Assembly (NCBI GenBank): GCA_041937175.2
Contig: CP166615.1
Location: 4,000,001 to 4,064,000 of the forward strand
Origin: Limnothrix sp. BL-A-16
Lineage (GTDB): Bacteria; Cyanobacteriota; Cyanobacteriia; CACIAM-69d
Length of the DNA: 64,000 bases
Direction: 5' to 3'
Part shown: one piece after another, positions 58,812 to 62,942 of the stretch
Layout of the letters: the number at the start of each line of letters is the position of its first letter
Numbering within the stretch: position 1 is the stretch's first letter
Made by a program: the position numbers and the translations under genes
Notes under the pieces: model-generated
What the model was told of the DNA's origin: nothing
What the model saw: only the letters and a program-made list of their open reading frames with translations
The model's database searches: none

Positions 58812-59675
58812 ATGGAAATTGATCAAACCACTCACCAGACTTTCGGTTCCAAAGCATCGCCCTGGAAAATCCTGGCTCAATATGTGCTTTTAGGGGCGAT
58901 CGCCCTGGTGATGTTGTTGCCCCTGCTCTGGCTGATGGGCACATCGTTGAAGTCGCCCACGGAAGATATTTTTTCCTTTCCGCCTCGGCTGATTCCCGCC
59001 GCGCCGACCTTAGAAAATTTTGTCAAAGCCTGGACGAGTGCCCCCTTTGCGCAATATTTGCTCAACAGCACGCTGGTGGCAGGGTTAACCGTGGCGTTGA
59101 ACTTATTGATCTGTTCCTTGGCGGCCTATCCCTTGGCGCGGTTGTCGTTTAAGGGGCGGGAATGGATTTTTAGCGCGATCGTGGCCACCATCGCCATTCC
59201 CTTCCAAATTGTGATGATTCCGCTCTATATTTTGGCGGTGAATTTAGGGCTGCGAAATAGTTTTATTGGCTTAATTTTCCCGGCGATCGCCTCGGCCTTT
59301 GGCATTTTTTTGATGCGCCAGGCCTTCATGGGTGTGCCGAAGGATTTGGAAGAAGCGGCCCGGATTGATGGCTGTTCTGAGTTGGGAATTTGGTGGCATG
59401 TGATGTTGCCATCGGTGCGGCCGGCGCTGATTACCCTGGCAATTTTTGTGTTTATTGGGGCTTGGAGCGATTTTCTCTGGCCGCTGCTAATTTTGGATGA
59501 CCCGAATTACTACACATTGCCGCTGGGGGTGGCGCGGCTGTCGGGCACGTTTTCCCTCGATTGGCGCTTAATTGCGGCGGGTTCGGTCATTTCGATCGCC
59601 CCAATTTTGGCTTTCTTTGTGGTGATGCAAAACTACATTGTGCCCAGCGAAACGGGCAGTGGCGTGAAGGGTTAG
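58812..59675 (+). CDS. Carbohydrate ABC transporter permease (MalG-like)
   Basis: PTLENF, AAYPLARL, EEAARIDG, WSDFLWPL. Confidence 0.92.
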   Translation: MEIDQTTHQTFGSKASPWKILAQYVLLGAIALVMLLPLLWLMGTSLKSPTEDIFSFPPRLIPAAPTLENFVKAWTSAPFAQYLLNSTLVAGLTVALNLLICSLAAYPLARLSFKGREWIFSAIVATIAIPFQIVMIPLYILAVNLGLRNSFIGLIFPAIASAFGIFLMRQAFMGVPKDLEEAARIDGCSELGIWWHVMLPSVRPALITLAIFVFIGAWSDFLWPLLILDDPNYYTLPLGVARLSGTFSLDWRLIAAGSVISIAPILAFFVVMQNYIVPSETGSGVKG

Positions 59676-59898
59676 TCAACGGTTAGGGCGGTTGCCCTGG
59701 GTTTAGTCCATGCCGCAAGGGATGATTTCACCCGTTTTTGAGCGATCGCCCGTTTCAACGGAACGGTACAGTTGAGACGGTTTGGAATTTTGGTGTCCTG
59801 GGGGTTGGCATGGGGTTGATCGCCCGATCGCCCAGCTTTTGCCCGGGTCGCTGCCCAACCGCAAGCCTCAACTTAGCCGTCCGGCAAATTTTTTAGCA

Positions 59899-60801
59899 AT
59901 GGCCGTTATCTGGGAACTGGATTTTTACTCGCGTCCGATTTTAGATGCAGACCAAAAAAAGGTTTGGGAAATCTTGATTTGTGAGAGTCCCACCGACTCG
60001 CGGGCCGATTGGCAATCCCTGTTTCGCTACAGCAAATATTGCTCCAACAGCGAGGTCAATTCCGTGACCCTGATGCAGGCGATCGAAGAGGCGATCGCCA
60101 AGGCGGGCCAGGCCCCCAGCCGGATTCGTTTTTTCCGGCAGGCCATGAAGAACATGATTGTCAAAGCCTGCCAGGATGCGGAGTTGCCCTGCTCCCTCAG
60201 CCACCGCACCCACGCCATCAAGGATTGGATTGCCGATCGGCTCGAAACGGTCTATCCCCAAGAACCGGGCTACCAAGCCACCGCCCAAACGGCGGGCGTG
60301 TTCATGCCGCCACCGGCCGCCCAGCCCTTGCCCGATGCGCTGTTGGGGCAAAAGTGGGCCTTTGTTTCCCTGGAAGCGTCGGCCTTTGGCGAGCTGCATG
60401 AATGGGCGATCGACTTTGGCGAGGCGTTTCCCTTGTCCATGGTCAATTTAGCGCCCGATACGCCAGTTCCCGGGCTGCTGATTTTTTCGCCTCGGGCCAT
60501 GGCCATCTCCGCTTGGATGTCGGGTTTGGAAATGGGCTTTGTGCGGATTGAACAACAGGTGAAGCCCTCCAGCCTGTCAAGCGATCGGGAGGAATTTCCC
60601 GATCGGGTGATTCTGGAAACCGGCATTGGCGATGCTTGGGTGCTCTCGACCTTGCCCAATGCGGCCCAAAAAGCCGAAGGACAAACCTTCGAGGCCCAAA
60701 AGCAAGGAGCACAAGGGGTGCATTTTTTGGCGGTGCAAACCAACCCCGATGAGGAACGCTTTGCGGGCTTTTGGCTCATGCGCGATCGCCGCGACAGCTA
60801 A
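59899..60801 (+). CDS. Tab2/Atab2 family RNA-binding protein
   Basis: WELDFYSRPILD...KKVWE, IRFFR, GVHFLAVQ...FAGFWL. Confidence 0.92.
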   Translation: MAVIWELDFYSRPILDADQKKVWEILICESPTDSRADWQSLFRYSKYCSNSEVNSVTLMQAIEEAIAKAGQAPSRIRFFRQAMKNMIVKACQDAELPCSLSHRTHAIKDWIADRLETVYPQEPGYQATAQTAGVFMPPPAAQPLPDALLGQKWAFVSLEASAFGELHEWAIDFGEAFPLSMVNLAPDTPVPGLLIFSPRAMAISAWMSGLEMGFVRIEQQVKPSSLSSDREEFPDRVILETGIGDAWVLSTLPNAAQKAEGQTFEAQKQGAQGVHFLAVQTNPDEERFAGFWLMRDRRDS

Positions 60802-60926
60802 ACCGTTGATTGACCCCCAAAGTTCAGCCCCCAACTCAACCCCAGCAGAGCAAGACCCAAGGCAACTGGGAATTAGCCCAGCGCGATCGCCCCGCAGCCC
60901 TCAATCAAAACACGCTCAAACCCCCC

Positions 60927-60967
60927 AAAAACTATCCGCTCCTACCCGAAACAACGGATAGGAGCGG
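60927..60967 (-). terminator. Intrinsic terminator of an unannotated minus-strand transcript
   Basis: CCGCTCCTATCCG-TTGTTT-CGGGTAGGAGCGG-ATAGTTTTT; 13-bp stem whose G-U pair works only on the minus strand. Confidence 0.8.
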
Positions 60968-61066
60968 TCTAGCGGGTTATCAACTTGAAACTCAACTGCC
61001 GGGTATTGCGAAAGCTTTAACCGCCCCGTCGAGTGACGTGACCCTTTTTGAAGAGGGAGGGCTTAC

Positions 61067-61141
61067 CTAGGCAACCAGCCCGGTACACAGCCAGTATCCT
61101 CCAACTTGAAAACCCTGAGACATACTACTGCTACTACCCAT
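61067..61141 (-). CDS. 24-aa small ORF MGSSSSMSQGFQVGGYWLCTGLVA
   Basis: AGGAGGTGAT (61155-61146), fully complementary to the 16S 3' end; GGAGG is 8 nt before ATG. Confidence 0.55.
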   Translation of the reverse strand: MGSSSSMSQGFQVGGYWLCTGLVA

Positions 61142-61422
61142 GGGCATCACCTCCTGCTTTATTCAAAGGGCCTCAATCACCTTGAGCCAACTGCTAAAAC
61201 TTGGACATTGCCCGAAGGCTGAATGCCCGCTGTTTCACGTTAAATGGCGGACTAGGCCTGATTGCCATTCAAATTAGCACGTTTTCCAAAAAGGCAGCAA
61301 CCTGGCAGAGTTCATTAATCTAGCAAGCGTTGATCACTGGTCACCCGCAAGCCGTGATTAGTGACTCTCCACTGGCAAGCATGACCTGGCGATTAATCGG
61401 CAAGCACTAATCGGCAATAACC

Positions 61423-62193
61423 ATGGAACGCATCACCCCCATGCCCCCAACCAGCGATCCGAAGGCGGAAATGGCCACGATTTTGCTGGTGGACGATGAG
61501 CAAGCGTTGGCCGATCCGCTCAGTCGGCTTTTGACCCGCGAGGGCTACAGCGTTGATCTGGCCAGCGACGGGCAAGCGGGCTATCAACTGGCCAGCCAAA
61601 ACACCTACGATTTGCTGATTTTGGATTGGATGTTGCCAGAAATCAGCGGGGTGGAAATTTGCCAGCGCCTGCGCCAAATGGGTCAGGGTGTGCCGGTGTT
61701 GTTTTTGACGGCGAAGGACACGATCGACGATCGAGTAGCAGGGTTGGATGCCGGAGCCGATGATTACCTGGTGAAACCCTTTGAGTTGCGGGAGTTGCTG
61801 GCGCGGGTGCGGGCCCTGTTGCGACGGCCCCGAACCACCCCGGACGAGGCCCCAGAAACCCCAACGGGAACCGATCGCCCCGGCCGCTTGCAGTGGCAGG
61901 ATCTTGGCCTCGATTGCGATAACCAGTTGGCCTATCGGGGCGATCGGCTGATTGAACTCTCTGACAAGGAAACCTGTCTATTGGAATACCTGATGCGCCA
62001 TCCGGGGCAAGTGTTGACCCATGACCAGATCTATAACCACCTGTGGCCCACGGGCGATCGCCCCAGCAGCAATGCCTTGGCCGCTCAAATTCGCCTGCTG
62101 CGACGCAAGATTGAAGCCGTGGGCGAACCCCCAGTGATTCACAGTGTCTATGGCAAGGGCTATCGGTTCGGTCTCACGACCGGCGACCCCTAA
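61423..62193 (+). CDS. OmpR-family response regulator (no adjacent kinase)
   Basis: ILLVDD, LDWMLP, LTAKD, DDYLVKPF, winged helix SVYGKGYRF; start may be 61441 or 61471. Confidence 0.93.
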   Translation: MERITPMPPTSDPKAEMATILLVDDEQALADPLSRLLTREGYSVDLASDGQAGYQLASQNTYDLLILDWMLPEISGVEICQRLRQMGQGVPVLFLTAKDTIDDRVAGLDAGADDYLVKPFELRELLARVRALLRRPRTTPDEAPETPTGTDRPGRLQWQDLGLDCDNQLAYRGDRLIELSDKETCLLEYLMRHPGQVLTHDQIYNHLWPTGDRPSSNALAAQIRLLRRKIEAVGEPPVIHSVYGKGYRFGLTTGDP

Positions 62194-62489
62194 ACCCTAA
62201 CCAGCCCATTTTGCGGCCAGCCCATTTTGCGGGCAAGCTACCAGGCCCGGGACAAAGGCCCCCCTCTTCCCGGGGATTGGTGCTCTGATTCAACGATTGA
62301 GCGGCTCAACTCGGAGGCGTTGGTCGTGAAGCGATTGACGCTCCGAGTCCATGACTCGCGCACTAACTCAATCGGTCAGTGGGTTGGAGGCTTGTCAATT
62401 ATGAAGAAACGATGAAGACGTAGTTCAAAAAAATCAAAAATCGGTGCAAAAGCGTTTACTGAAAGGCTGATCTTCTTGATAGATCAACC

Positions 62490-62942
62490 TCACAGATAAA
62501 AACGCTCTTCATCGTCATCGACAGCTTCAAAGTTTCGCAGCAAGACTCGATCGAATACAGCATCAAGGGCCGCATCGTCAAAGTCCGTTGATCGCTGCTC
62601 TTGCAACGGATTCGATAGGGGATAGAGCTGTAGTTGTCTCCGGTCTTGAACTAAATAGAAATAGGGTTCCAAATCTGTTGTTTGGCCAATTTCTAAATAA
62701 TCAAAGCTACAAACATTCAGGTAGAGCGTTCGGTTCGCAACCAACGTTGCCTGATGCTCATCGGCAAAGACATCAAGGACGAGACCTTCTCCGGTGCTCG
62801 TGGTTGTGCCGTCCTGGATATGCGTGTAGCGCACCCGATTCAGCCCAGCGAGCAGTTTTTGCATATCCTGCTTGTTGGCAATGATGCCACGATCGACAAT
62901 GCAGGGAGCCGGTAATTGCGTTGTAGATGGACGTTTGTTCAT
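62490..62942 (-). CDS. Conserved cyanobacterial hypothetical protein
   Basis: LPAPCIVDRGII.NKQDM...TLVANRTLYLNVCSFDYL. Confidence 0.75.
   Translation of the reverse strand: MNKRPSTTQLPAPCIVDRGIIANKQDMQKLLAGLNRVRYTHIQDGTTTSTGEGLVLDVFADEHQATLVANRTLYLNVCSFDYLEIGQTTDLEPYFYLVQDRRQLQLYPLSNPLQEQRSTDFDDAALDAVFDRVLLRNFEAVDDDEERFYL

Follow-up and report, generated by a model that had tools for sequence, protein, structure and literature searches.

A copy of the cyanobacterial small RNA ncl0160 in Limnothrix sp. BL-A-16, with a putative micro-ORF inside a conserved helix

The element and its assignment to ncl0160

We analysed a 64,000-nt stretch of the Limnothrix sp. BL-A-16 genome (assembly GCA_041937175.2, contig CP166615.1, positions 4,000,001 to 4,064,000 of the forward strand; hereafter the window), focusing on a short minus-strand element between a Tab2-family gene and the gene of an OmpR-type response regulator. 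A sequence-only reading of this DNA had described the element as a self-contained unit carrying a micro open reading frame (micro-ORF) behind a very strong Shine-Dalgarno (SD) sequence, and had been unable to assign it to a named family. Judged from its sequence, the element is almost certainly an ortholog of ncl0160, a small RNA of cyanobacteria. The promoter-like boxes, leader, SD, 24-codon micro-ORF, 3' region of about 100 nt and terminator that the earlier reading had listed are all present on the minus strand from 61300 to 60927. The features of the locus, in window coordinates, are as follows.

61295-61300, minus strand: -35-like hexamer TTGCTG, a weak match (3/6) to TTGACA, kept only within the genus
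18 nt, minus strand: spacer between TTGCTG and TGcTAATTT, from sequence reading
61271-61279, minus strand: extended -10 box TGcTAATTT, from sequence reading
61156-61266, minus strand: 5' leader of about 110 nt, with a predicted start near 61263-61266; sequence and length are genus-specific
61146-61155, minus strand: SD AGGAGGTGAT, a perfect 10-nt complement of the 16S rRNA 3' end
61141-61139, minus strand: start codon ATG, with an in-frame upstream ATG at 61147 and GTG at 61150
61067-61141, minus strand: micro-ORF MGSSSSMSQGFQVGGYWLCTGLVA of 24 codons with stop TAG at 61069-61067, from ORF reading and alignment
61069-61115, minus strand: 5' strand of the long helix, starting at codon 9 and ending with the stop, GGGTT..CAAGT..ACTGGCTG..CCGGG..GTTGCCT, from RNAalifold, pair counts and alignment
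61013-61068, minus strand: apical region of variable length and sequence, unalignable between lineages, with small hairpins in the fold of the window copy
60974-61012, minus strand: 3' strand of the long helix, TTCGCAA..CCCGG-CAGTTGAGT..AGTTG..AACCC, from alignment and pair counts
60927-60973, minus strand: Rho-independent terminator with conserved base GCTAGACCGCTCC ... GGAGCGGATAGT and a T run, from stem call and alignment
59782-60801, plus strand: Tab2-family gene, convergent with the element, from Pfam
61423-62193, plus strand: OmpR-type response regulator gene, divergent from the element, from Pfam

The SD had been described as complementary to the 16S rRNA over 10 nt, and AGGAGGTGAT indeed complements AUCACCUCCU, which lies inside GGATCACCTCCTT, the terminus of both 16S genes in this genome. 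It is followed by GCCC and then by the ATG, which places the start 8 nt past the GGAGG core; the in-frame upstream ATG that had been pointed out is also there. In the window this 10-mer is found once (0.10 expected; at least once in 8 of 100 shuffles), and the 4.56-Mb genome holds 15 copies, two of which lie opposite the 16S genes. The terminator stem comprises 13 bp, nine of them G-C pairs (60967-60936), and is followed by ATAGTTTTT. Folding of 60927-61265 (339 nt) gave -124.4 kcal/mol (z = -2.66 versus shuffles), and in this single-sequence fold the leader is predicted to pair with the SD region. The element is single-copy in its own genome by BLAST, and a tRNA/tmRNA scan of the region found none. 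From these signals, the element would be transcribed on its own as a unit of roughly 340 nt, with an extended -10 promoter at one end and a constitutive intrinsic terminator at the other.

The first report of ncl0160, in Synechocystis sp. PCC 6803, is credited to Mitschke et al. 2011 by Brenes-Alvarez et al. 2016 (PMC4734099). The available passages of the latter paper report 83 ncl0160 homologs among 89 genomes analysed, and describe a strongly conserved region translatable as a putative peptide of 23-25 amino acids, which starts with ATG or sometimes GTG, always has a ribosome-binding site ahead, and ends in TAA, TAG or TGA (47, 34 and 2 cases, respectively). There, ncl0160 is treated as a discrete small RNA (sRNA) whose size is set by the terminator. 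For the Nostoc 7120 homolog, Table S3 gives a start at 5442335f, a predicted length of 283 nt and reads from differential RNA sequencing (dRNA-seq), and Table S1 holds a Northern probe (PMC4734099).

When the rows of Figure S1 and Table S3 in that paper (Synechocystis 6803, Nostoc 7120 and others) were set against our alignment of homologs, the same blocks appeared in the same order, namely AGGAGGTGATGCCCATG, AGTAGTA, ATGGGTC, CCGGCTGTG.GCCGGGGCTGTTCTCTA[AG], TTCC.GGCAGTC, ACCC.CTAGACCGC and GAGCGGATAGTTTT; this match was made by reading the rows, not with a model from the published alignment. Further, GGAGGTGATGCCCATG, which the window carries at 61154-61139, stands at 73 places in the published supplementary file (PMC4734099). 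The window copy matched positions 2-256 of 257-258 in a hidden Markov model of the family (E = 1.1e-46). It possesses the ribosome-binding site, start and frame of ncl0160 (AGGAGGTGAT, ATG, 24 codons, TAG) as well as an intrinsic terminator, with the stem and T run at 60967-60927 and the conserved GAGCGGATAGTTTT end. In blocks, ribosome-binding site, ATG/GTG start, 23-25-codon frame, stop usage, terminator and wide distribution, the published family (PMC4734099) and the window copy are therefore alike. The window copy differs from other members in a longer, unrelated leader (about 110 nt), in an expanded serine run giving 24-25 codons in its genus, in lacking CCUCC in the 3' strand, and in lying between Tab2 and response-regulator genes rather than in the neighbourhood of psbA, PCD and porin genes described below. 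Its length is estimated at about 340 nt, versus the 283 nt predicted in Nostoc 7120 (PMC4734099).

The element is thus not new: the family is already described, and its micro-ORF, ribosome-binding site and wide distribution were published in 2016. As a match to a described RNA family was the outcome named beforehand as counting against novelty, the claim that the element belongs to no named family fails. The Rfam part of the proposed checks matched no family: scanning 59500-62500 with E up to 1 returned only a chance match to mir-246 on the terminator hairpin (22.9 bits, gathering score 60). Likewise, searches of Pfam and NCBIfam with the window peptide and with a typical family peptide returned 0 families. 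A literature search, with subscription journals and most supplements outside its coverage, found no function for ncl0160 and no follow-up on its putative peptide. ncl0160 is without an Rfam, Pfam or NCBIfam model, so genome annotation is set to go on missing it, and scans made blind will report it as new time and again.

The conserved helix and the micro-ORF

A BLAST search of 61 related genomes with the unit as query matched 22 of them, and outside the genus the homology runs exactly from AGGAGG to the terminator. An nhmmer profile built from 21 aligned homologs gave a full-length or near full-length match in all 99 fetched loci, one of which is cut by a contig end. These loci hold 83 distinct sequences, and the alignment used for the counts below (A2) comprises 82 distinct homologs. 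The homolog search that had been proposed for the element thus returned relatives with conserved SD, ATG and frame, and we regard this conservation as the decisive evidence that the unit is real.

RNAalifold predicted 44 consensus pairs for the 82 sequences, 27 of them with compensatory changes. Paired cells amounted to 95.9%, versus 33-50% when partners were slid by one to three columns, and the covariation score was 0.327 versus at most 0.105 in the slid controls; none of 500 shuffles reached any of five structure measures. The structure consists of one long interrupted helix joining codons 9 to the stop (61115-61069) with the 3' block (61012-60974) under a variable cap. The terminator, whose base is invariant in sequence, adjoins this helix directly. 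Conserved G-U pairs (e.g., in 80/82 and 70/82 sequences at two pairs) fix the strand of the element as the minus strand, in agreement with what the sequence-only reading had concluded from G-U pairs.

The reading frame is maintained across the same sequences. The start column holds ATG in 78 homologs and GTG in the remaining 4, and the frame spans 23-25 codons in 81/82. The stop codon occupies the same column in 76/82, with TAA in 42, TAG in 38 and TGA in 2 homologs. The 11 columns of the SD read AGGAGGTGATG in 50/82, with most other variants retaining GGAGG, and the SD-to-ATG spacing of 8-10 nt is retained in three loci (L015, L019 and L103) despite an entirely different spacer sequence. Of 1584 codon instances, 383 are one mutation from a stop, and one frame in 82 is truncated. 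With a start in 82/82 and the frame in 81/82, the description of the element as a self-contained minus-strand unit, at once a structured RNA and the carrier of a micro-ORF with a very strong SD, holds for the family.

At the level of residues, the picture is mixed. By eye, the peptide has a polar N-terminal half with the consensus M-x-D/E-S-S-K, followed by at most about nine mostly apolar C-terminal residues; two AGT serine codons are nearly invariant, and the genus of the window copy expands them to four or five serine codons. Third positions are free at unpaired codons that retain the residue or its class (GAT/GAC/GAA/GAG, TGT/TGC, GTT/GTC/GTG/GTA). Other codons are frozen at synonymous sites too (GGT 72/72, CTG 72/72 and, twice, AGT 68/72). 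One codon reads CGG in 46 and TGG in 23 sequences (Arg/Trp), shifting with its pairing partner (C-G 47, U-A 29), and radical swaps that track the helix include Gln/Leu and Cys/Arg as well as Arg/Trp. In our reading, the RNA pairing and a frame that stays open at a fixed length are probably both maintained; the residues appear only loosely constrained.

We therefore favour, as a rather probable explanation, an independently transcribed, structured small mRNA or dual-function RNA. A number of results weigh against it. Codon-position entropies of 0.52, 0.60 and 0.61 reveal no three-base periodicity, and the synonymous share of one-step codon differences, 0.30 versus 0.234 possible, is in slight excess; the frame could therefore be a by-product of constraint at the nucleotide level. 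At one locus (L012, 1325-1558, minus strand), a one-base deletion cuts the micro-ORF to 16 codons, and the long helix is kept via paired substitutions (CCGG to CCAA on one strand, CCGG to a TTAG-type sequence on the other). The 82 sequences are related by descent and not independent, so counts taken over them overstate the number of evolutionary events. Three candidate pairings for a regulatory switch were compared with controls. The SD could pair with a CCUCC in the 3' strand in 95% of cells, a hairpin over the start codon (GCCCAUG/CAUGGGU) could form in 91%, and UUAGG of the leader could pair with the stop region in 74%; in no case did compensatory changes exceed those of shuffled or slid controls, and the window copy lacks the CCUCC motif. 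Public sequencing runs cover the stretch as assembled contigs only, without transcript ends, strand or level: two runs of unknown kind span the whole of it, two metatranscriptome runs carry contigs of related strains across most of it, and in one run a contig breaks at about 61042-61071. Finally, in the available passages of PMC4734099, translation of ncl0160 is termed likely rather than demonstrated.

Several of these observations are also expected of a purely non-coding structured RNA, i.e., a base-pairing or protein-binding riboregulator without a functional peptide, in which the frame and the SD-like stretch would serve the fold or contacts (e.g., with the 3' end of the 16S rRNA or with partners resembling SD or anti-SD sequences). 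Strong covariation across the 'coding' part, radical residue swaps that follow the pairing (Arg/Trp, Gln/Leu, Cys/Arg), codons invariant even at synonymous sites, the absent codon periodicity, the locus that kept its helix and lost its frame (L012), and a peptide without a protein-family match in Pfam or NCBIfam all point in this direction. Such an RNA would hardly account, however, for an ATG or GTG in 82/82 sequences at a fixed distance from GGAGG even behind an unrelated spacer, for a stop column shared by 76/82 with all three stop codons in use, for just one premature stop when roughly a quarter of the codon instances are a single step away from a stop, or for third positions that vary freely at unpaired codons while preserving the residue or its class. 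We consider a purely non-coding role possible but doubtful.

Transcription signals, distribution and neighbouring genes

A consensus sigma-70 scan of 60500-61700 on both strands called no promoter-like site, and it missed the promoter of the element because both hexamers match weakly. By eye, a TGTG[CT]TAnnnT box recurs upstream of most of the unique homologs listed, at a variable distance from the SD (roughly 20 nt for one clade, 60 nt for most homologs and 110 nt for the genus of the window copy). Between box and SD, the homologs carry a variable hairpin and a semi-conserved CCGTTTAGG; the leader of the window copy reads CCCTTTGAATAAAGC before its SD. Leaders of other lineages are shorter (about 20-60 nt), whereas the leader of about 110 nt found here (61264-61156) is conserved solely within the genus. 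The Nostoc 7120 homolog sequence in Table S3 begins at the dRNA-seq start (PMC4734099), and in similar loci the equivalent point lies a few bases past the -10 box. This position of the box relative to a mapped start supports, indirectly, a start near 61264 in the window.

In the family, the terminator has 15 pairs, seven of which are invariant and seven of which exhibit compensatory changes. With the 5' strand of the long helix withheld, it retained 7/7 tested pairs in 80/82 sequences and 6/7 in the other two. Folding of the 3' strand and terminator alone in the 82 sequences found no antiterminator, so the unit resembles a discrete transcript rather than a classical attenuator.

Few cyanobacterial small transcripts are conserved as widely as ncl0160. 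A strict IUPAC pattern for the 3' strand block (60974-61012) and the adjoining base of the terminator stem matched 175/401 genomes of the class and 98/169 genera, usually once per genome, and a reversed control pattern matched rarely. With a central family member as the BLAST query, 101/151 genomes were matched; this query missed the family to which the window copy belongs, which the window sequence itself does find. One family of small genomes (f2) gave 0/40 by pattern and 0/9 by BLAST, another (f21) 0/10 by pattern and 1/8 by BLAST, and in two more (f16 and f30) neither pattern nor BLAST found a copy among the genomes searched. Most genomes hold one copy, and G047 (L011 and L027), G254, G133 and G370 have two pattern matches or two full copies on different contigs.

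Gene order was compared over 83 loci, many of them cut by contig ends, with gene identities assigned by Pfam. A copy of psbA precedes the element in the same orientation in 39/83 (median gap 247 nt), a gene of the pterin-4a-carbinolamine dehydratase (PCD) family follows on the same strand in 38/83 (median 91 nt to the first aligned residue, smallest about 0), and an SLH-OprB porin gene lies downstream in 39/83. At least one of the three is present in 62/83 loci. The recurrent psbA-PCD-porin order may be a lead to the role of ncl0160. The window copy has none of these neighbours, which argues that the element works on its own.

Some further observations concern these neighbourhoods. The order psbA, ncl0160, PCD, SLH-OprB porin recurs on one strand among loci L006-L106 (e.g., L008 1497-1742, L020 1335-1625 and L022 1346-1605), and the PCD reading frame often opens no more than a few tens of bases from the ncl0160 terminator. 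Many pattern matches sit 400-1000 nt from a contig end, as a repeated psbA next door would be expected to cause. In one locus (L016 1656-2891, locus minus strand), a TnpB/Cas12f-like transposon gene (OrfB_IS605 plus a Cas12f1-like TNB domain) lies directly downstream; a close relative (L015) has an ORF without a Pfam match in its place. In the genus of the window copy (among L001, L003, L019 and L101-L103), an OmpR-type response regulator gene lies divergently upstream at about 200-250 nt. In a distant clade with the short leader, a response regulator is also present, at a distance of about 800-880 nt. Because tblastn is promiscuous among response regulators, orthology of the two is only putative.

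The element could also be a cis-acting leader, either a leader-peptide attenuator or riboswitch-like, that governs read-through into the PCD-like and porin genes, the copy in the window then being an orphan. The frequency with which PCD (38/83) and porin (39/83) genes follow would fit this, as would the short PCD gaps, which probably leave little room for a separate promoter, and the two near-invariant AGT serine codons with their expansion to four or five in the genus studied here. Yet the terminator forms in 80/82 sequences with the 5' strand withheld and there is no antiterminator in the folds examined, PCD was not found downstream in this genome or in 45/83 loci, the next gene here is convergent, and at loci without PCD the element is fully conserved in sequence. 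ncl0160 was, in addition, published as a discrete sRNA, with 283 nt predicted in Nostoc 7120 (available passages of PMC4734099). A cis-acting leader is hence improbable in our view.

The sequence-only reading had also drawn attention to a likeness to type I toxins, and a type I toxin-antitoxin-like module would consist of a toxic peptide whose mRNA is silenced by the long fold-back helix. Toxin mRNAs of the hok and tisB type combine a strong SD with an ORF within long-range pairing, and the very strong SD and buried ORF of the element resemble them in this respect. The likeness did not extend further: the peptide has 23-25 residues, a polar N-terminal half and, by eye, no stretch of membrane-spanning length, and the element is single-copy and vertically conserved across most families of the class (101/151 and 175/401 genomes) in conserved synteny, in contrast to toxin loci, which are mobile and patchy. 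Nor was a conserved antisense promoter or RNA seen, no dedicated search having been made. We regard a toxin module as very improbable.

Candidate mechanism and related systems

Under the favoured explanation, a structured small mRNA or dual-function RNA, the very strong SD 8 nt upstream of the ATG is predicted to load ribosomes onto the 24-codon frame. The helix, together with the leader in the genus of the window copy, would limit and time ribosome access and stabilise the transcript. A translating ribosome would have to unzip the long helix, and the translated and folded states would therefore exclude each other. Selection would act mainly on the RNA pairing and on an open frame of fixed length, with the exact peptide less important, which would fit a dual-function RNA or an mRNA whose translation outweighs its peptide sequence. 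We treat the unit as stand-alone because its terminator is self-sufficient, the next gene in this genome is convergent and the copy is single.

A more specific proposal is that ncl0160 acts as a translation-gated riboregulator, in which the ORF would serve chiefly as a track for a ribosome drawn in by the unusually long match to the 16S 3' end; this ribosome, by unzipping the helix, would free the invariant 3' strand and terminator base for a second activity such as pairing with mRNAs or binding of a protein, and the psbA/PCD/porin position would tie this activity to photosystem II turnover or envelope permeability. It is compatible with the data because pairing is better conserved than the peptide, a fixed-length frame is kept and synteny is found in 62/83 loci. 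We put it forward as speculative, and on balance unlikely in this precise form.

Among known dual-function sRNAs, reviews in their available passages describe SgrS/SgrT of E. coli, SR1/SR1P of B. subtilis and RNAIII/delta-haemolysin of S. aureus. Like them, ncl0160 is a small, independently transcribed RNA with a short frame (its translation being putative) and conserved structure. SgrS, SR1 and RNAIII bear no sequence relation to it, and in them the coding and regulatory parts are largely separate, whereas the frame of ncl0160 is mostly one strand of its main helix. With residues that drift along with the pairing of a covarying helix, this frame offers a clean test case for separating RNA function from peptide function.

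Closer at hand are the cyanobacterial micro-protein transcripts Norf1, NsiR6, HliR1 and Norf4, which were first taken for sRNAs, encode 31-66 residues and were tagged for detection (available passages of PMC5126843). These are likewise short transcripts known from transcriptomics with conserved small ORFs (PMC5126843), but the putative frame of ncl0160 is shorter and embedded in a covarying helix. At 23-25 codons, it is also shorter than PetN (29 amino acids), called the shortest annotated conserved cyanobacterial protein in the passages available of the same paper (PMC5126843). The downstream-peptide motif/yfr6 (RF01704) is another cyanobacterial structured RNA with a very short ORF, to which the Rfam scan of 59500-62500 gave no match. 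In RF01704 the ORF lies downstream of the fold, whereas in ncl0160 it lies inside. Relative to the available passages of PMC4734099, the covariation statistics of the helix, the weak codon-level selection, the synteny and the antiterminator test are additions of the present analysis.

Contigs of related strains place the variable part of the locus in the divergent intergenic region. Between the promoter of the element and the response-regulator gene (61340-61420), a 58-base stretch is exchanged for 65 letters in one run, and another run has a 28-base insertion at 61412. On the other side, in the metatranscriptome contigs of related strains from two runs, 52 bases at 60804-60857 are replaced by 68 other letters, and one related strain in these runs has a 14-base insertion at 60906. 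Two GCGATCGC palindromes, which we take to be the HIP1 octamer typical of cyanobacteria, lie on this side too, between the Tab2 gene and the terminator (60780-60900).

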